From IMG/VR virus record IMGVR_UViG_3300029288_000097, positions 32,001 through 96,000 of that record: a DNA stretch of 64,000 bases. One strand, given 5' to 3'. The notes under the pieces are model-generated. The model was given only the letters and a program-made list of their open reading frames with translations, searched no databases and was not told where the DNA came from. The DNA is from a virus (Duplodnaviria; Caudoviricetes). Position 1 is the stretch's first letter. The number at the start of each line of letters is the position of its first letter. Of this stretch, positions 16,795-33,300 are shown piece after piece. Both the position numbers and the translations under genes were made by a program.

Positions 16795-17041
16795 CGAAGA
16801 GCTTAGAGCCAAAATTAGGTATCAGAATCCTATGGCTCAACTTCTTGAAGGCTATGATGAAGCTATAATCGGCACTGTAGAAATGTTTGGGCGACCACCC
16901 GTTGTTTGCTATGATAAAAGACTCCTCATGGATTTACTTATCGAAAATGGAGAGGATGGTCGGGAAGATATTGAACATCTCTTGAGTGCTGCTGATGAAG
17001 ATGCTCCAGTTTTCCTAACCCGTATGACTGTAAATGATTGA
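16772..17041 (+). CDS. Conserved small phage protein
   Basis: LEGYDEAIIG...VVCYD motif seen in phage hypothetical proteins. Confidence 0.65.
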   Translation: MENLAYPDEELRAKIRYQNPMAQLLEGYDEAIIGTVEMFGRPPVVCYDKRLLMDLLIENGEDGREDIEHLLSAADEDAPVFLTRMTVND

Positions 17042-17819
17042 CATTATATGCACAGACTGTGTGAAAGCCCTCTCTGAGTTGAAACCAAACTCACTCGATG
17101 TAATTGTGACCTCGCCACCCTACAATCTTGGAATCAAGTATGATTGCACTTACGATGATGCTATGAGCCGTGAAGACTACTTATTCTGGTTCGTAGATGT
17201 GGCCCACGCTATGTATACCGCTTTAAGCGACCAAGGCTCTCTTTTCCTGAACATTGGCTCAAAACCCACTGATCCTATGGTGCCATTCGATGTGCTTCAG
17301 GTGCTCACTCGAATGTTTAAGCTTCAGAATACGATCCATTGGGTAAAATCCATATCGATAAATGAGCAGAGCACGGGGCACTATAAACCGATCAATAGTG
17401 ATCGTTTCATAAATGATTGCCATGAGTATGTGTTTCATCTTACCAAGACTGGTAATGTAAAAGTAGATCGTCTTGCTATTGGAGTCCCTTATGCAGACGA
17501 GACCAATATAAAACGTTGGTCAGGTAAACAGAATGTTCGTTGTCGGGGCAATGCATGGTTCATACCTTACAATACCATCCAGAGCCGCGATAATGATAGA
17601 CCACACCCTGCCACTTTCCCGGTCGAATTACCCGAGATGTGTTTCAAACTTCACGGGATAGATCGGATTACGTGGGCCTGTGATCCATTCGTGGGCATAG
17701 GCAGTAGTGCCATAGCCGCACAAAGATTGGGTATTCCAAACTTTATCGGCATGGATTTATCTCCAACTTATTGTAGGAGGGCAAAAGACATGTTGAAGGA
17801 GGATGCAGATGCGGGCTAG
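17034..17819 (+). CDS. DNA amino-methyltransferase (N4-C/N6-A, beta class)
   Basis: VTSPPY, HPATFP and DPFVGIGSS motifs. Confidence 0.93.
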   Translation: MIDIICTDCVKALSELKPNSLDVIVTSPPYNLGIKYDCTYDDAMSREDYLFWFVDVAHAMYTALSDQGSLFLNIGSKPTDPMVPFDVLQVLTRMFKLQNTIHWVKSISINEQSTGHYKPINSDRFINDCHEYVFHLTKTGNVKVDRLAIGVPYADETNIKRWSGKQNVRCRGNAWFIPYNTIQSRDNDRPHPATFPVELPEMCFKLHGIDRITWACDPFVGIGSSAIAAQRLGIPNFIGMDLSPTYCRRAKDMLKEDADAG

Positions 17820-18463: not shown

Positions 18464-19486
18464 ATGGCAGTAGAAACGACAATGAAAGGTAGAGTAAGTT
18501 CTCAATTCGTTCAGAAGGGGGACGTAGGTCATATCTATGGGGGAGTTGAGATCACTGGCAAAGTCACAGCTGAGGAAGCTCTGGTTTTAGCTGGAGCCAA
18601 CTTTGAAGTAGCACAATGTGCCGCTCGTATGGGCGATAGAGATAGAACCAAAATTGATAATCTGTTCCACAATTTCAGAACGGATGTCTCCGGCCCCGAG
18701 AAATATCTTGGCACAGTCAAGGGTGATTACCATGTCATCCAGAATGAACGTGCATTTGCATGGATCGATGAATTGATTGGAGATCGTACAGCATGCACCA
18801 TCACTTCTGCCGGTACACTTTATGGTGGACGATGTGTTTGGGTGTGCATTGATCTTGGTGGCTACGAGGTGCTTCCTGATGATGAAGTCCGGCACCATTT
18901 GCTAATCGTCAATTCGCATGATGGCAGCTCCAATATGATCTTCCAGCTACTTGATAAGCGTGTAGTGTGCCAGAATGTCATATCTGTAACTGGTGGCGTA
19001 CACGGTTCAAGTGAACCACTGAAGATTCGACATACACGGCTGGCTGAAATCCGAATGGAAGATGTGCAGCAGGCTATCGAGTTAGCCGATACACACTTCA
19101 AAGAGGCCGAGGAAGCTATGAAGCACATGGCCCGTGTGTCTATCGATGAAGATGAACAAGACTTGCTTATATATGCTGGCTTGGGCGTATCAAAGAAGCA
19201 ACTACGAATGCTCAGCGCGGGTAAGTTTACCAAGTATCCTCAGTGGGTAAATCAGGCAACGTTGGTCAAGGCTGCTGTTTTACAGGGGCCGGGAGCTGAG
19301 TATGCACAGGGCACAGTATGGGGTGTGCTTAATGGCTTCACTTACTACTACGACCACATGAGACACGTCCGTAACTCCGATACGCGCCCGGATGTGGCAG
19401 TAGAGCAAAAGATTCTTCGCGGGAAAGGTGTTCGGGGTAAGAAGCTGGCATTTGAAGCTTGTTTGAGCTTCTGTAACCGGAACTGA
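18464..19486 (+). CDS. DUF932/DUF945 family phage/plasmid protein
   Basis: LG.V...Y..IQN..AF, SAG.L.GG, NSHDGSS, RVVCQN, IRHT and GTVWG.LNG.T.Y.DH motifs. Confidence 0.88.
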   Translation: MAVETTMKGRVSSQFVQKGDVGHIYGGVEITGKVTAEEALVLAGANFEVAQCAARMGDRDRTKIDNLFHNFRTDVSGPEKYLGTVKGDYHVIQNERAFAWIDELIGDRTACTITSAGTLYGGRCVWVCIDLGGYEVLPDDEVRHHLLIVNSHDGSSNMIFQLLDKRVVCQNVISVTGGVHGSSEPLKIRHTRLAEIRMEDVQQAIELADTHFKEAEEAMKHMARVSIDEDEQDLLIYAGLGVSKKQLRMLSAGKFTKYPQWVNQATLVKAAVLQGPGAEYAQGTVWGVLNGFTYYYDHMRHVRNSDTRPDVAVEQKILRGKGVRGKKLAFEACLSFCNRN

Positions 19487-19513
19487 CACAACTAAATAAC
19501 GAAAAATATAGGT

Positions 19514-19548
19514 AAAACAGCTGTCAGACTACCTCTGGCAGCTGTTTT
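19514..19548. terminator. Intrinsic terminator (probably bidirectional)
   Basis: AAAACAGCTGTCAG/CTGGCAGCTGTTTT. Confidence 0.8.
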
Positions 19549-19647
19549 GCTATGTACTTTTTCCAAATAATTTTTTTGATAGGACACCCTATTCGCTTGC
19601 AAGTTTGTTAAGCTAGATTCAGCGACTCATAAAAGGAGCGATTTGCT

Positions 19648-22600
19648 ATGGCAGAAACACTGTTAGCAATGGCCCGAGCATTACCGCTCTTGCTCGAAGA
19701 CCAAGGGATTAAGAAACGTAAAGACGTTAGCCCCAAGGAAGGCGAGAAAGAATACGGTGATGTGACCTTTGCTGATCCAACGAACAAGAAGTATCCGTTG
19801 GATTCTGAGAAGCACGTCAAGGCTGCCTGGAGCTATATTAACATGCCTCGGAATGCAGGTAAGTATAGTTCCAAGGACTTGGGTGCTATCAAGGGCCGAA
19901 TCAAAAGAGCTGCCAAGAAGTTCGGAGTTGCTATATCGGAAGATCAGGACTTCGGTTATGATATTCCGATAACCCAGGATCATTACCACTTGTATGGTTC
20001 GGTGGAAGATGTCCTTACCCGTATCAATCTGGCGTTTCACCAGTGGAGACGCACGCTAGAAAGTGAGATCGAGTATCGTTACAGCTCAATACTGGGCGTT
20101 TACACCGATCATATCGTTTTCTACACAGATAATTGGCGGGAGGGATTGATCTACTACACAGTCAGCTATACGGTTGACACCACCAATGGGAGTGTCACCA
20201 TTCTCAATGACGTTAATCGCGTGGATGTGACTGTGATAGTTACCGATCTTGCCAGTGTTGGTGACGATGGGGATGGCAATGCTCCAACTCAAACCGCTAC
20301 GGAGGACAAAGCGATGGCTGAGGACAAGAAAACCCCAGAAGTCGAAGCACAGGATGGAAGTACCAGCACGACAGTTGTTAAGACTGATGCCCCTGTGGGT
20401 ACCAGTGCTGACAGCCCGACTGTTGAACAGCCTAAGACTGATGCTTCGTCTGCTGGACCATCCGTACCGGATGCCTCAACTGAGGCCACCAGCGGCTCTC
20501 CGGTCGAGAAGTCTGATGACATTCCGGTCGGTCCGAGCGGTAGCGATGGTAGCAGCACCGGCACGGTAGCGGGTGCACTCTCTGATGGTGGAGCTGGCAC
20601 AAAGCAAGCACAGGAGTTCGAGGGCAAAGACGAGTTCTTTGTTCAATCGGATAACTATGATGCTGCAAACCAGCCCATGAGTTACATCAAACTCCAAGCA
20701 GTCGAGGAGAAAGATGGTAAAAAACTCATGACCATCCAAGGCATTGCCACTAGGGGTGACATTGTGAACTCCAAGGGGCAGGTCTACCCAACCGAAGTAT
20801 GGCAAGAAAACTTGCCGAGAATGAACGAATTGGCAACTCAAGGTAAGTTCCTTGGGAAGCTGGAACATCCGAAAGTTGAGCAAGGGCTGGTTGACGCTGC
20901 TCTTAAGTTCAACAAGTTCTGGATACAGAACAATGACGTTTGGTTTGAGGCAGTAGTTATGCCTACGGAACCGGACGGCAAGAATCTGCAGACCATGATC
21001 GAATCGGGTGTGCAGGTTGATCTTAGCTCTCGTGGCTATGGTCAATTTGTTCAGTGTGATTGGCGCGGAAAGCAGCGACAAGTCATGCAAAAAGGCTTCA
21101 TCTGCACAGCTATCGATGCTGTATGGATGGGTGCCAGCACCGGTTCCGGTGTAACAAGCGTCACATATCAAAGCGACTCAAAAACGGTCGCGGATCAAGG
21201 AGACAGTCCAGTGGACAAAGAGAAGAAGGACGAAACCCAGGTTCAGTCTGCTGAGGATCGTGCAGCAGCTATCCGAGCAAAGGGTGCCTTCGATGAGACT
21301 AAAAAGTGCCTCCTTCAGCAGTCCGGCCTTAGCACGGACGGGCAGAGGGCATATCAGGCCGCCCTTGATAAGGCGACCGATGGTAGCATTGAGTCTCTGA
21401 TGGGTGCATCCGATGCAATCTTGCCGAGTTTACAGTCGGTATTCCCGGTAACTCAGTCTGAGACGACCGAGGAAGCCGCAACTCAGTCCGAGACCTACTC
21501 TCCGGTATTCTTCTCCAAGCAGAATGCCGAGGAGTTGGCACCGAAGACAGTTGGCGAGATGATCGACAGAATGGTACGCGACCTGCCGGAGCGTTATGAG
21601 GGTCAGTCTGATCCGGTGCATAAGGTGCCTTCACACCTTACCAGCCCGAGAGAAGCCTGCCGTCTGATGCTTCAGAATGTCGCTCGACTTACTGCGCCTT
21701 CATTCCATGGCCCATCCGCAGCTCGCGGACTCTTGGCCCTGGAACAGGGCAAGATTGACAGAGCACAGGACATCCTCACTCAGGGTGCCGAGTATGCTCT
21801 GCAGTCACTTCCAACCGGAGCAACTACGGTTGCTGGAGACGGTGCTCCGCTCTCCAATTATCTGATCTTCCCGCTCATTCGCCGGGTGTTCCCGCAGTAC
21901 ATCCTGAACGAGATCGCTTCGATCCAGCCTATGGATAGGCCGAACGGTAAGATTTTCTGGCTTGACCAGTATCGAACCGAAGACCCGTCTGCAGGTGAGG
22001 TCACCCGAATCGATCTCAACACATCGTCCAGCCCGTTCAATACGAGCTATGCCGATCAGGACACTGAAGGCGAAACTGCCAAGATCATCCGCATGAAACT
22101 GTCCAGTCAGTTGATCGAAGCGCATACCAAGAAATTGGGTGCAGCCTGGTCAATTGAAGAGATGCAGGATTTGAGAGCCTATCATGGTCTCGATGCTGCA
22201 CAGGAGCTTCTTGCAGGTGTGGCACGTGAGCTGGCATTGGAGATCAATGCTGAAGTTCTCAACGACATGATTCTTCAGGCTTCCGCTGGAGCCCTGGAGT
22301 TTGGAACCACAATGCCGACAACTGGTTTTGATAACCAGCCGGAGTGGGATGCTTACATCTGGAACTATGTGTCCAAGATGGAAAACATCATCTTCAGCAA
22401 GCGCAACGGTGGGATCACTCACCTGATCTGCGGTATGGACGCCGCTCTCGCTCTCGCTAAGTCGAACCGAATGGCAATCTCGGTTGCCACTGGTGGCGAT
22501 GGTGCAATGAACGAGCAGTATCCGGGTGTGGCCGTCATGAATCTGGTTTCTGGCACCGGTCAGAGATACCGTATTCTGAAGACCAACTTCTGGGGTAGTG

Positions 22601-22824
22601 GCACCACCAATGGTGCTAAGATCATGGCGTTCCGAAGAGGAACCGAGTGGAATGACGTTCCTTACGTCTACGCGCCGTACGCGGACTTCACCACTCCGAT
22701 GTTCACTGACCCGCTGACATTCGATCAGAAGCAGGGTGTTATGTCTCGCTTCGCCAAGAAGTGCGTGACCCCTGATGCTATCGGAACCATCGAGGTCAAG
22801 AACCAGACTGGCGCACTCGTCTAA
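19648..22824 (+). CDS. Head polyprotein: DUF6582-like domain, acidic linker, T4 gp21-like prohead protease, scaffold, gp23-like major capsid protein
   Basis: FADP.NKKYPLD.E.HV.AAWSY; GKLEHP / SSRGYG / DAV protease motifs; PLIRRVFP..I..EI.SIQPM..P.G.IF, KKL.A.WS.E..QDL.AYHGLDA..EL and YVYAPY gp23 motifs. Confidence 0.92.
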   Translation: MAETLLAMARALPLLLEDQGIKKRKDVSPKEGEKEYGDVTFADPTNKKYPLDSEKHVKAAWSYINMPRNAGKYSSKDLGAIKGRIKRAAKKFGVAISEDQDFGYDIPITQDHYHLYGSVEDVLTRINLAFHQWRRTLESEIEYRYSSILGVYTDHIVFYTDNWREGLIYYTVSYTVDTTNGSVTILNDVNRVDVTVIVTDLASVGDDGDGNAPTQTATEDKAMAEDKKTPEVEAQDGSTSTTVVKTDAPVGTSADSPTVEQPKTDASSAGPSVPDASTEATSGSPVEKSDDIPVGPSGSDGSSTGTVAGALSDGGAGTKQAQEFEGKDEFFVQSDNYDAANQPMSYIKLQAVEEKDGKKLMTIQGIATRGDIVNSKGQVYPTEVWQENLPRMNELATQGKFLGKLEHPKVEQGLVDAALKFNKFWIQNNDVWFEAVVMPTEPDGKNLQTMIESGVQVDLSSRGYGQFVQCDWRGKQRQVMQKGFICTAIDAVWMGASTGSGVTSVTYQSDSKTVADQGDSPVDKEKKDETQVQSAEDRAAAIRAKGAFDETKKCLLQQSGLSTDGQRAYQAALDKATDGSIESLMGASDAILPSLQSVFPVTQSETTEEAATQSETYSPVFFSKQNAEELAPKTVGEMIDRMVRDLPERYEGQSDPVHKVPSHLTSPREACRLMLQNVARLTAPSFHGPSAARGLLALEQGKIDRAQDILTQGAEYALQSLPTGATTVAGDGAPLSNYLIFPLIRRVFPQYILNEIASIQPMDRPNGKIFWLDQYRTEDPSAGEVTRIDLNTSSSPFNTSYADQDTEGETAKIIRMKLSSQLIEAHTKKLGAAWSIEEMQDLRAYHGLDAAQELLAGVARELALEINAEVLNDMILQASAGALEFGTTMPTTGFDNQPEWDAYIWNYVSKMENIIFSKRNGGITHLICGMDAALALAKSNRMAISVATGGDGAMNEQYPGVAVMNLVSGTGQRYRILKTNFWGSGTTNGAKIMAFRRGTEWNDVPYVYAPYADFTTPMFTDPLTFDQKQGVMSRFAKKCVTPDAIGTIEVKNQTGALV

Positions 22825-23105: not shown

Positions 23106-23450
23106 ATGGCAAGCATGAAAGACAATGTAACCAGCATCATTAACTGGCTACACCAGGCTATCGACATGCTTATCGTCCTCATCAGAGGTGGTAAAATTGA
23201 AGAGGCCGTCGAGTTGATCCAAGATGTACGTGATGTCATCTCGTCCTATCTTGGTGTCTTTCAGAGTTTCGTTCCAGACAATGCCATTACGACTATGCCT
23301 GGTAACTTCTGGAAGAAGCTGAAATGGATCGCGGATAATACTGGTTGGATTCAAGCTCTTGCACTTCTCACCAGTAGCACCAATCCATTTGAAGCATCAA
23401 AGACACGAGCAGCTGCCGTGGCCTCAAAGTGGGGCTTTACGACAACGTAA
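23106..23450 (+). CDS. Hypothetical helical protein (possible head component)
   Basis: TAAGGAG RBS; lies in the head region. Confidence 0.7.
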   Translation: MASMKDNVTSIINWLHQAIDMLIVLIRGGKIEEAVELIQDVRDVISSYLGVFQSFVPDNAITTMPGNFWKKLKWIADNTGWIQALALLTSSTNPFEASKTRAAAVASKWGFTTT

Positions 23451-23488
23451 CCACTTCCCTCGATGATGGGAAGCAAGGAGGAAGTACA

Positions 23489-24415
23489 ATGTATCGAATC
23501 ATAATTGTAATGCTGGCAATCTTGCTGAGCTTCACACCATCGAAGGCGAGCGTAGACAAGCTACCTGCCTCACATGATGACCACGTGAGGCAGGTAGAAG
23601 CTGCCAAGACTGCTACCCATAGTGACCCGCCATGGGCTGAACGAGAAGGAACAATAAAGCATGCTTTGACTTTAACCGATGGCAGTTCTGTATCACTCGA
23701 TTGTGTGCGTGTAGCTGCAATCTATAAGACTCCAAAAGAATACTTTGTCATCACTGAATGGTGGGATAATAGCGAAGATCATGCGATCATAGTAAATCAC
23801 GCAGCAGCCACAACTATGCTCCCCGGACAAACCATTGATGTAAGTGGCACAATCAGCTCCCTATCCGATGGAAGACGCCTTATAGATTATCCTCGTGTCC
23901 TTGGCTATACAGACAAAGAGGGCACTCTACTTGTTAAAGGTGGCCCATGTATAAAAGGCATCGATAAGCCTGTAGAATGGGCCTGGAAGACTGTACTTTT
24001 TACAACTACTCAGCCAAAAACCTACAAGACAGCAACTTCTAAAGTGGGTGTTAGAGCTGTAACAGCAACTACACTTGACTCAAGTCCCTACTCGATTAAA
24101 GGTCTAACCACATATGAGACTATTCAGGCTCTCATTGATGCAAAGCCAGCAGAGGGTGCATGGGTAAGATTACGTAAGTTGAATATCCATCTAACAGCCA
24201 CAGACGACACAAATGGACATTATCTTGTGGTTACTGACAAAAGCGATCAATACCTCCAGGTATTCACTACAGCTGCCCCTAAAGTCTCCACAGCACGAGT
24301 TGGACGCCTTATTGGTAAAGTGCACCTGTTGGACGAGAAGATAGTTTTACTGGTTGACAGTGGGCCGACATTTGATGCACAATTGGGCACCGGTGACATC
24401 TGGATTATCGACTAG
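23489..24415 (+). CDS. Secreted OB-fold-repeat protein
   Basis: AAGGAGG RBS; signal peptide MYRIIIVMLAILLSFTPSKAS; GQTIDVSGT and LLVDSG OB-type strands; related in style to the next gene. Confidence 0.75.
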   Translation: MYRIIIVMLAILLSFTPSKASVDKLPASHDDHVRQVEAAKTATHSDPPWAEREGTIKHALTLTDGSSVSLDCVRVAAIYKTPKEYFVITEWWDNSEDHAIIVNHAAATTMLPGQTIDVSGTISSLSDGRRLIDYPRVLGYTDKEGTLLVKGGPCIKGIDKPVEWAWKTVLFTTTQPKTYKTATSKVGVRAVTATTLDSSPYSIKGLTTYETIQALIDAKPAEGAWVRLRKLNIHLTATDDTNGHYLVVTDKSDQYLQVFTTAAPKVSTARVGRLIGKVHLLDEKIVLLVDSGPTFDAQLGTGDIWIID

Positions 24416-30322: not shown

Positions 30323-33300
30323 ATGCGCATACCAATTGAGATAGATTCATCTGCAGTATCTCCAGGATTACGGCAAGCCGAAAATCTTGTTGATAGTGCA
30401 ATGGCTCGTATGCAAGCTCGAATCAATGCCGTCAAAGGCCCGTCCTTCGCTGGAGGAGCCGGAGGCGGTCTTGGTTTGGCTACTGATCTACGTCTGGCTA
30501 ATAAAGAGGTCAGTGGCATTGCAAAAACGCTCACTGGTATGGGTAGCCTTACTACAGGACTTGGAATAGGTGCAGCAGTCGGTGGAGCTGCACTGCTTGA
30601 ACAAAGTCTCGAACGATCTATCCGCAAGGCAAAAGAGTTTCAAACGGCTACATTGGCTATCGCGGCCACCATGGGTTCTATCGGCGAGTGGAAAAGTGGA
30701 CCTGGTGGCAAAGCTCTAGCTCCTGTTCAGCAAAACCAACGTAATATGTGGGAAGCTGAAAAATACAGGATGAAAATACTTGAGCGATCAGCCAAAAACA
30801 TCCTCACATTTGAAGAACAGCTTAGTGCTTTCCAAGCAGGGCTTTCTTCAGGTGCTCGAAAAGGTTTGAATCCTGACCAGATCATGAAGTTGACCGAGCA
30901 AACTGCCGTAGTTGCTAAAACTCTCGGTTTGCGCGGTGAGCAGATTGCAAACGCCTCACGTCTTATGATGGGTGGTGGTGTCAATATTGCACGTTCTACT
31001 ATAGGACGAGCTTTAGGTATCACCAATGCAGATATTGCTACCCGACAAGGACCAGAACTTGCTAAGTTTCTTAACCAACGCATGAAGGGTTTTGAAGCGA
31101 TGCAGGGACAGTTCGAGAACTCCATAGAAGGTTTAACCTCTACTCTGGAAGCTAAAATTGATGTACTAGCTTCCAGAGTTGGTGAAAAGTTCTTCAAGGG
31201 CATTGCACCTACAATGAAACAGATCGGGTTACTTGGTGAACCTGATCGTTCTGAGTATCGCTCTGATGCTGAATATAAGAAAGCTGTAGCCAGCTATCAG
31301 AAGCAATCACAGACAATGGATAAAGTTGTCGGAGCTGCTGCTGAAGCATTCAATGGTCTTTTTGAGGGAGTAAAAGGTGTCGTAGAATCGGACACATTCC
31401 AGACTCTACTCGAAGTGCTTGTACAGATAGCCAAGGTATCGAAGACTATTATGCTGGCAGCTATTTTCAGCAAAATAGCTGGTGCTGTCGGAGCTGCTAC
31501 TGGTGCTCTTCAAAAGTTTCTAGCTATGGCCCGTAGTGTAGGCACTATAGGTGGTGGAGGTGGTGGAACAGGTGCCAGTGGCATCATGCCAGCCGACATC
31601 GTAGCCAGTGTCTTGACAGGTGGTGGTCGTGGAGCCAGAGGTGTTGGTGCCCAAGGTCTTGGAGCTGAATTAGGTTTAGCTGGTTTTAGTGGAGCATCTG
31701 CAGAAGATGTTGCACGGCGTTTTGGTGTAAACCCAGAGGCCAAATATGCCACTCGTATGCGCCAGGTTCGAGGTATAGTTGGTGGTCGTTCTGCTATGGC
31801 TGAGGCAATGGTTATGGCTCTCGGCTATGGTGCTGCGGGTCTACCTCAAACTCAACGTTATGGTGCCAATTTCTCAGCTGAAGTAGAAAGACAGGCAAAA
31901 ATTGCCGGTAAGCGTGACTACTACAGTATCAAAGGTGGTATACGTGGCCTAAGCGAAGAGGAAGCTGTTCTCTCGAATAGATCACAATTTCTTGGTGGAA
32001 CTGAACGCCAAGCTGCGATGGAACGATTAAATGCCATCAATATGGAAAAGATGGCTCTCGCGCAGCAAATGACAATGATACCTTATGCCTCTCTTCCATT
32101 TGCAGGTAAGATGGGCCGTCGTTGGAGTGGATTCACTGGACATGCACAAGAAGCTCTTCCTATTGCTATGCTTGGCCTTATGGGTGGTCAGATGGCAAAA
32201 GACATCATTCCTGGCACAATAGGAGATGTCATAGGGAATGTTGTTCAGGGTGGCTCTCTCGGATATTTAGGTAAAGGTATCAGACCAGGTTTAACTACCA
32301 AAGGTGCTGTTGGAGCTGGTGTTGTTGCTGGTATTGGCTCAAGTCTTGTAGACTACTACCAAAAGAAGTCTATGGAAGACTTGAACAAAGGCACTACAGG
32401 TGGGCAATATGCAGGCATGGCTCTTGGCGGGGCTGCTAAGTGGGGTGCAGCTGGTTTTATGGTTGGTGGCCCTCTGGGAGCAGCTGCCGGAGCCATCGGT
32501 GGTGCTGTACTTGAGCCTCTTATCTCTTCTATGAAAAAAGCACAAGCTCAAGCTGAAGCTTCTGCTAAAGCTCTTGAAGAGATGTCTGCCAAGTTCCCAC
32601 AGGCAGCTCAAATCACAAAAACCAGTCAACAAATACGTAATATAGATAGACAATTACAAACAGGCCGGAAACCAAGTACAGAACGTGATCCAAATTGGTT
32701 TGCACGTCAGTACTGGGCTTTATCTGGTTGGATGGGTGCACCTGTTAAAGTAACGGAACCCGGTCGAAAACTCACAGCAGAAGAACAGAAAGACTTAGCT
32801 GCTCGCCGTGATGCTCTAAAAACTCGCCGGGAGCAAGAACGTCAAGTTGCAATATTTGAAGGCGATCAGGGACTCACTGAAGACCTGAATAGACGCAAAG
32901 CACAACTCGATCTCATTTCCCAGTATGGTGGAAAGAGTATCGATACTCAGATGCGCATTGCAAAGCTTCAAGCTGAGTATTCAGCAAAATCTCTGGAAAA
33001 AGACAAAGCTCAGATTCCAGTTGATTTCAATATGGAAGCATTCGGCAAGCGCATGAAAGACAAGAGTAATCCTCAATATCAACAGTGGCAGAAGGAATAC
33101 CAAAAGTGGCGACTCGGACGCACAGATGAAGAAATCAAAAATGGCAAAGCTGATTATGCTTCATTTATCTCATCCAAAGCTGACGAAGAAGTAAGGAAGC
33201 TGCAAGAAGCAGCCTTACCCGCTCTTAAAGCAGAAGTTCGTGCAGCAGGCGAAGCTACTGTTAAGTCACTACAGCTACAGTCAGGTGCTATGCAAGCTGC

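Follow-up and report, generated by a model that had tools for sequence, protein, structure and literature searches.

The window analysed here is a stretch of 64,000 nucleotides (positions 32,001 to 96,000) of the IMG/VR virus record IMGVR_UViG_3300029288_000097, a Caudoviricetes genome of 113,976 bp judged complete, which encodes TerL and a T4-type portal protein (Portal_T4). Within the window a single open reading frame (ORF; 19648-22824, plus strand) runs uninterrupted over 1058 codons plus a stop, and places an N-terminal module, a prohead protease, a scaffold-like region and the major capsid protein in one frame. In addition to its 5' start, this head gene contains two internal in-frame start codons, each preceded by a Shine-Dalgarno (SD) sequence, and these three signals are likely to give rise to three predicted co-terminal products of 1058, 836 and 537 amino acids (aa).

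An earlier inspection of the DNA, hereafter the sequence-only reading, had assigned DUF6582-like, protease, scaffold and capsid domains to this ORF, an assignment borne out by the open frame, Pfam, PHROGs and AlphaFold2 (AF2), whereas its description of the locus as one gene for the whole head was overstated, the portal and other head genes being separate. Pfam returned DUF6582 (PF20223; residues 19-99, E 2e-33, 115 bits against a gathering cut-off of 27.3), Peptidase_S77 (PF03420, the T4 gp21 prohead protease family; residues 341-499, E 4e-14, 53 bits against a cut-off of 27) and Gp23 (PF07068; residues 805-1047, E 3e-37, 129.5 bits), with no Pfam match in the ORF to an S78 protease or to PF05065 (HK97 Phage_capsid), while the PHROGs matches were to head maturation protease and major head protein. 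Neither a second Gp23-type gene nor a gp24-like paralogue was found in the 113,976-bp genome, and this ORF, as the sole Gp23-type gene, must supply the shell subunit.

The AF2 model of the full protein, built from 62 homologues and with residues 1-222 modelled separately, resolved a succession of DUF6582 (~28-91), a further folded unit designated domain X (~112-195), a disordered acidic linker (196-321) holding M223, the protease (~330-495), a second disordered segment (496-533) holding V522, helices (535-711), a short disordered stretch (717-734) and the capsid domain (740-1058). The protease aligned with the T4 gp21 structure 5JBL at E 3e-8, the Ser-Arg-Gly motif being matched, and family-wide its catalytic residues His407 and Ser460 were near-invariant and invariant, respectively. 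The capsid part aligned with T4 gp23 structures (E 2.5e-15), the equivalent of the gp23 maturation site falling at about residues 711-720.

All three start signals claimed by the sequence-only reading, ATG 19648 together with GGAGG-8nt-ATG at 20314 (site 1, M223) and AAGGAG-8nt-GTG at 21211 (site 2, V522), were read exactly at those positions, and the internal pair do lie at domain junctions, each in a segment that AF2 leaves disordered between two folded parts. Counting in-frame starts whose SD has at least 5 bases, the head ORF has 3 in its 1059 codons; the rate for the remaining 47 genes of the window is 0.45 per 1000 codons. A third such in-frame SD and start, at GTG 22219, was rejected as an initiation site: it is inside the conserved capsid domain, where Gln-Glu codons spell CAGGAG. 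Calculated mRNA folding placed sites 1 and 2 within the least-folded 3-4% of the 60-nt segments of their own ORFs, site 1 ranking among the weakest 4% of ORF segments and, when compared with its own linker alone, still among the weakest 7.5%. In the present genome the 5' start folded at -14.4 kcal/mol, close to the ORF mean, as against about -8 for the internal sites, a weak hint that structure would favour the shorter products.

It is only through conservation across homologues that the result goes far beyond chance. From 49 fetched loci, 28 distinct near-complete homologous ORFs were analysed at the DNA level, an SD and start being scored as an in-frame ATG or GTG with an SD of at least 4 bases situated 4-12 nt upstream. 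Such a pair was present at site 2 in 25 of the 28, within a linker of 19-36 codons following the Tyr-Gln-Ser that ends the protease and in most of the ORFs as the hexamer AAGGAG, whereas the background in the same 28 ORFs (0.0063 per in-frame codon) predicts 0.18 per second linker. The A(A)GGAG motif was kept although the residues it encodes vary (QGD, KGE, EET, QGA, EGE, KES, TEE), the Val codons read at site 2 were all GTG, as against 24.5% GTG among the Val codons of these ORFs, and synonymous resampling predicted retention of the SD and start in 4.8 of 22 cases where 22 of 22 were observed. Of five additional fused relatives, retrieved at 21-28% identity, four had an SD and ATG directly after the protease (at residue 380 in L054, 377 in L055, 376 in L056 and 305 in L058) and the fifth was ambiguous; site 2 also recurred in three relatives at 32-35% identity (L043, L045, L047). 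Judged by this distribution, site 2 is old and general.

Site 1 corresponds to an aligned column with Met in 42, Val in 12 and Leu in 2 of 62 proteins (56/62), in a region where neighbouring columns reach only 20-50%. At the DNA level an SD and start were present in 23 of 27 linkers, with SDs of 5-7 bases at a spacing of 5-12 nt, and resampling predicted 7.0 of 16 clean cases as against the 16 of 16 observed. No counterpart of site 1 was found in the five fused relatives at 21-28% identity (L054-L058), and it was missing in L043 and L045 too. Persistence of the internal signals in homologues, which the sequence-only reading had proposed as a check, was thus found for both sites at the nucleotide level, in otherwise hypervariable linkers, with the reservation that site 1 is not universal.

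Two homologues (L020, L037) lacked both internal SDs and a third (L022) that at site 2, yet all three kept Met in both linkers. An SD preceded only 1 of 7 genes in L020 and 0 of 3 in L037, so that loss of the internal SDs matches the general lack of SDs in the genes of these two relatives, and the internal signal tracks the ordinary initiation signal of the phage. As a separate observation, the near-absence of SDs in L020 and L037 suggests that their hosts do not rely on SD-led initiation, and hence that the family spans hosts with differing initiation signals. Given conservation of the internal sites, the gene probably yields several nested proteins rather than just one polyprotein.

A number of considerations weigh against the three-product scheme, and limit what can be claimed for it. 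The excess of internal SDs and starts within the single genome is modest, and the homologues are related, so that the counts cited above do not represent independent events. Part of the SD signal follows from composition, because acidic Gly/Glu-rich linkers easily encode purine-rich SD-like words: when codons were resampled for the given amino acids, roughly half of the cases kept an SD (10.6/22 for site 2 and 9.7/16 for site 1). Protein constraint alone can give rise to a column of SDs and starts, as at residue 855, the only other alignment column with many such matches (12 of 28 ORFs), which was rejected as an initiation site as conserved Gln-Glu-Leu/Met codons of the capsid domain explain it. 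Site 1 is specific to the closer clade, and the three-tier scheme is therefore clade-specific. The contrast in folding between the 5' and internal sites varies among homologues, the similar strength of all three SDs predicts no steep ratio of products, and GTG, the codon from which the presumed bulk product would start in the core clade, is not what one would expect for the virion's most abundant protein.

Some of these same observations can be accommodated if the gene makes two products only, a scaffold-capsid protein from site 2 and the full-length protein, with site 1 a weak or lineage-specific signal of little output. Such a restriction would account for the conservation of site 2 down to 21-28% identity where site 1 is missing (L043, L045, L054-L058), and for the excess over resampling, which is larger at site 2 (4.8 of 22 expected) than at site 1 (7.0 of 16). 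Within the clade at or above about 49% identity, however, the two sites are equally regular, the site 1 column retains Met, Val or Leu in 56/62 proteins in an otherwise unalignable linker, the SDs of site 1 are of 5-7 bases at 5-12 nt, and its mRNA is among the least structured; a two-product gene is accordingly considered unlikely.

A more radical alternative is that only the full-length polyprotein is made, each shell subunit arriving with its own protease, and that the internal SDs and starts are relics of gene fusion or by-products of the acidic linkers. The usual annotation and discussion of fusion genes as single products (PMC7302621, PMC5513430) accords with this, separate-gene relatives do exist, which makes ancestral start sites plausible, and linker composition does account for about half of the SD retention. 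Neutral relics, on the other hand, would not outlast divergence to 21-50% identity in linkers free to vary in residues and length, selection for initiation is indicated by the exclusive use of GTG for Val, the fixed spacing from SD to start and the weak mRNA folding, and the internal SDs have been lost exactly in those lineages whose genes are SD-less. Sole production of the polyprotein is thus regarded as distinctly improbable.

SD-like words have also been proposed to slow elongating ribosomes, although the proposal is disputed, and both motifs do occur just after folded domains, where translational pausing at domain borders might assist co-translational folding. A pause site would need no start codon, yet a start-capable codon follows 4-12 nt downstream in nearly all homologues, with Val always encoded by GTG, and the SD-less lineages keep Met; this explanation is therefore held to be very unlikely. 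That the fusion is an artefact, with separate genes merged through a sequencing or assembly error or a recoded stop, has one apparent split homologue (L060) in its favour and no other support found, and merits practically no credence, since more than 60 independent metagenome assemblies show an open frame and the split of L060 coincides with a run of N in the linker.

Table 1. Positions of the features discussed, in window coordinates except for the last five rows, which are given by locus.
Feature	Position	Strand	Remarks
Terminator-like hairpin	19511..19551	+	18-bp stem; upstream of head gene; consensus scan only
Start of full-length product (1058 aa)	19633..19650	+	SD AAGGAG 19633-19638, 9 nt, ATG 19648
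Fused head protein ORF	19648..22824	+	1058 aa; sole Gp23-type capsid gene of the 113,976-bp genome
DUF6582 domain, residues 19-99	19702..19944	+	Pfam; optional module in family
Domain X, residues ~112-195	19981..20232	+	AF2 pLDDT (predicted local distance difference test) ~90; one helix packed on antiparallel sheet; in close family
Linker 1, residues 196-333	20233..20646	+	Acidic, Ser/Thr/Pro-rich, disordered; pLDDT <50 over 196-321; ends at invariant L-x-Q333/(S or G)
Internal site 1, M223	20301..20316	+	GGAGG 20301-20305, 8 nt, ATG 20314; predicted start of 836-aa linker-protease-scaffold-capsid product
Gln333 and next residue	20644-20649		Candidate cleavage site
T4 gp21-type prohead serine protease, residues 334-508	20647..21171	+	Pfam S77, PDB 5JBL; ends at conserved Y-Q508/S
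Gln508 and next residue	21169-21174		Candidate cleavage site
Internal site 2, V522	21197..21213	+	AAGGAG 21197-21202, 8 nt, GTG 21211; predicted start of 537-aa scaffold-capsid product
Scaffold or delta-like region, residues 522-719	21211..21804	+	Mostly helical (535-711); Q/S sites 596, 613, 625, 719
Gln596 and next residue	21433-21438		Candidate cleavage site
Gln613 and next residue	21484-21489		Candidate cleavage site
Gln625 and next residue	21520-21525		Candidate cleavage site
Gln719 and next residue	21802-21807		Candidate cleavage site
Predicted mature gp23-type major capsid protein, residues 720-1058	21805..22821	+	Pfam Gp23, T4 gp23 structures, AF2
RRH1 gene annotated "major capsid and protease fusion"	L061:4439-6424
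GMA5 gene, same annotation	L062:568-2529
Jeanie gene, same annotation	L063:571-2544
Saphira gene, same annotation	L066:985-2568
Adaia gene, same annotation	L068:982-2583

The segments between the domains also carry a recurrent motif, a conserved L-x-Q followed by Ser, Gly or Ala, at Q333, Q508, Q596, Q613, Q625 and Q719, mostly in stretches modelled with low confidence by AF2. Gln was conserved in 62 of 62 proteins at both Q333 and Q719 and in 61 of 62 at Q508, often with Leu at P3, and Q719 coincides with the maturation position expected from the T4 gp23 alignment. These six positions are probable cleavage sites, and their sequences suggest a gp21-type protease that cuts after Gln rather than Glu.

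The slot upstream of the protease was variously filled in the family, by an N-terminal DUF6582, by a DUF6582 after domain X, by ChaB, or by nothing. Six proteins (P0035, P0043, P0051, P0054, P0057, P0058) had the DUF6582-like segment after domain X and just 5' of the site 1 Met instead of at the N-terminus, and two fused relatives at 32% identity (L043:358-3819, L045:247-3756) had an N-terminal ChaB domain (PF06150) where the present phage has DUF6582. In P0068, DUF6582 is joined to a prohead protease of the S78 type, which is unrelated, and no paper on DUF6582 was found in the literature. That the N-terminal module can be exchanged fits the idea of covalently loaded accessory domains. The domain X region has conserved residues at Q110, H112, G117, S118, W133, L149 and Y169. 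A search for its function was without issue, Foldseek against the PDB returning nothing at E ≤ 0.001, VIA-align giving only cystatin- and NTF2-like matches at Z 5-7, in the range of common arrangements, and the ESM Atlas offering only unnamed viral clusters, all below 0.85; a role as a protease-inhibitor-like prodomain is speculation.

The family to which the gene belongs is sizeable. A large protein collection yielded 66 fused homologues (930-1090 aa, 38-85% identity), about half with DUF6582, and an exhaustive search of cluster representatives gave 72 clusters at E <1e-30, dozens of them fused (800-1225 aa) and extending down to about 24-30% identity. A tblastn search of phage records for a cultured relative returned only T4-like cyanophages, with separate genes at about 26% identity; TerL matched at about 22%. 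The lineage is T4-type, with genomes of about 100-115 kb, and is known from metagenomes only, the contigs of the family coming from anaerobic digester and sediment samples. The gene is colinear with gp21, gp22 and gp23 of those cyanophages (~26% identity), and in more remote relatives protease, scaffold and major capsid protein have a gene each, as in T4, the first gene boundary falling where site 2 lies. In one of them (L024, 28% identity) the genes encode a protease of 210 aa, a scaffold of 366 aa and a capsid protein of 392 aa, and no homology was found between these genes and the N-terminal 222 residues or the scaffold region of the fused protein. Above about 35% identity no genuine split gene was found: the search for shorter homologues among close relatives gave only fragments on 1-5-kb contigs, one of which (P0102) starts 20 nt from the contig end, and the apparent split of P0100/L060 was rejected as coincident with a run of N in linker 2. 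As to whether homologues are split at the internal sites, a further check named in the sequence-only reading, a split at the place of site 2 was seen in distant relatives and none in those above about 35% identity.

Taken as a whole, three nested products would provide a means of stocking the prohead with a limited number of proteases. The sequence-only reading had already inferred three co-terminal products that set the stoichiometry and load accessory domains covalently, an interpretation that the comparative evidence supports; the predicted masses are about 116, 90 and 59 kDa. Initiation at GTG 21211 would supply the 537-aa scaffold-capsid protein as the building block of the shell, that at ATG 20314 would yield the same protein with the protease attached by a disordered linker to its inward-facing N-terminus, and that at ATG 19648 would add domain X and DUF6582. 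Through co-assembly of the shared capsid domain, sub-stoichiometric amounts of protease and accessory domains would enter the prohead interior with no need of separate targeting signals, whereupon the protease would cut at sites of the L-x-Q/S type, which would release the mature capsid protein (~720-1058) and empty the interior. For comparison, T4 has some 55 copies of gp21 for about 930 of gp23. What is inferred is that initiation takes place at the internal sites, in what ratios the products are made, where the protease cleaves and what becomes of the N-terminal domains.

With T4 itself the gene shares the colinear order gp21, gp22, gp23, homologous protease and capsid domains, a gp20-like portal, and, as a predicted feature, the removal by the protease of an N-terminal capsid propeptide. 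It differs in being one ORF, here and in more than 60 homologues, where T4 has three genes plus gp24, gp67, gp68 and internal proteins, and in having Gln at the candidate cleavage sites where T4 has Glu, the residue specified by the T4 protease. The predicted 537-aa product also resembles the delta-domain proteins HK97 gp5 and T5 pb8 in its combination of a helical N-terminal region of about 198 aa with an HK97-fold capsid domain; both HK97 and T5 encode their protease in a gene of its own.

Nested starts have a precedent in lambda and HSV-1 (herpes simplex virus 1), where an internal in-frame start gives a shorter co-terminal assembly protein and the C-terminus common to both proteins directs the protease into the procapsid. 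Nested protease/scaffold genes include lambda C/Nu3, HSV-1 UL26/UL26.5 and gp17/gp17.5 of the archaeal Haloferax virus HFTV1, the last established by Ribo-seq (bioRxiv 10.64898/2026.09.13.751334). As in these three, a protease (S77, 341-499) precedes a helical assembly region (535-711) in one ORF; the conserved in-frame signal between the two, in unstructured mRNA, is a putative initiation site. Unlike them, the shared C-terminal part includes the capsid protein, whereby the protease would be tethered to a shell subunit instead of a free scaffold, there are two putative internal starts and not one, and the protease is of the S77 (T4 gp21) type.

Protease, scaffold and capsid functions are also united in a single gene in the fusions of actinophage clusters EE, AN, AX, FE, CW and DM and of Rhodococcus phage RRH1, which are small siphophages of 14-17 kb with an HK97-like capsid subunit (PMC7302621, PMC5513430), and for which the same papers describe no nested starts. 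The present family differs in being T4-type (Portal_T4, S77, Gp23), in its genomes of about 100-115 kb and in its extra N-terminal module; no sequence relationship to the actinophage fusions was found, and RRH1 gp07 had no Pfam match. In a limited side test, the fusion genes of RRH1, GMA5 and Jeanie each had an in-frame SD and ATG at the protease/scaffold border (residues 274, 265 and 276, respectively), in one shared column and as the only such match in the gene. Saphira (160) and Adaia (162) had theirs at another shared position, Schiebs had one nearby, and Whytu (L067) none. The border signals of these actinophages are hints that the internal-start solution may be general. The present case would combine nested starts with gene fusion, extending the nesting to the capsid protein itself and adding a third tier, in a T4-type lineage.

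With respect to the neighbourhood of the head gene, the hairpin at its 5' side is followed by a non-coding gap of 96 nt that could hold a late promoter. Internal promoters, on the lines of the HSV-1 scheme, were considered and set aside, with no sigma-70-like site near either internal start, although the promoter type of the host is not known. Between the portal and head genes lie a DNA methyltransferase gene (17034-17819) and a gene for a DUF932 protein (18464-19486; PF06067, E 2e-35; phrog_1221), in the place occupied in T4 by core genes 67 and 68. The true start of the downstream ORF called from GTG 23429 (23429-24415) is probably the ATG at 23489 (codon 21), which has a strong AAGGAGG 7 nt upstream. 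Immediately 3' of the fused capsid gene, three of the distant relatives have glycosyltransferase genes (GT4 / Glycos_transf_1; L054:4419-5708, L056:4361-5662, L057:4946-5481), raising the possibility of capsid glycosylation.

Any fused protease-capsid gene poses the question of how one protease per shell subunit is avoided, and conserved internal starts offer a concrete and testable answer, one that appears to recur in fusion genes of unrelated phages. It is a tentative proposal, and one about which we are somewhat more doubtful than confident, that internal initiation is a general and repeatedly evolved means of setting the ratio in such genes, both in the T4-type (dozens of clusters at 50% identity) and in the HK97-type actinophage fusions, and that the position preceding the protease takes exchangeable cargo (DUF6582, ChaB or none), by which means proteins covalently attached to a shell subunit are loaded into the capsid. 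In terms of annotation, the one gene called here probably stands for three proteins. The locus would also represent a natural system in which covalent fusion to the capsid protein directs a protease and cargo domains into a capsid, and as such may be relevant both to prohead assembly and to capsid-based encapsulation.

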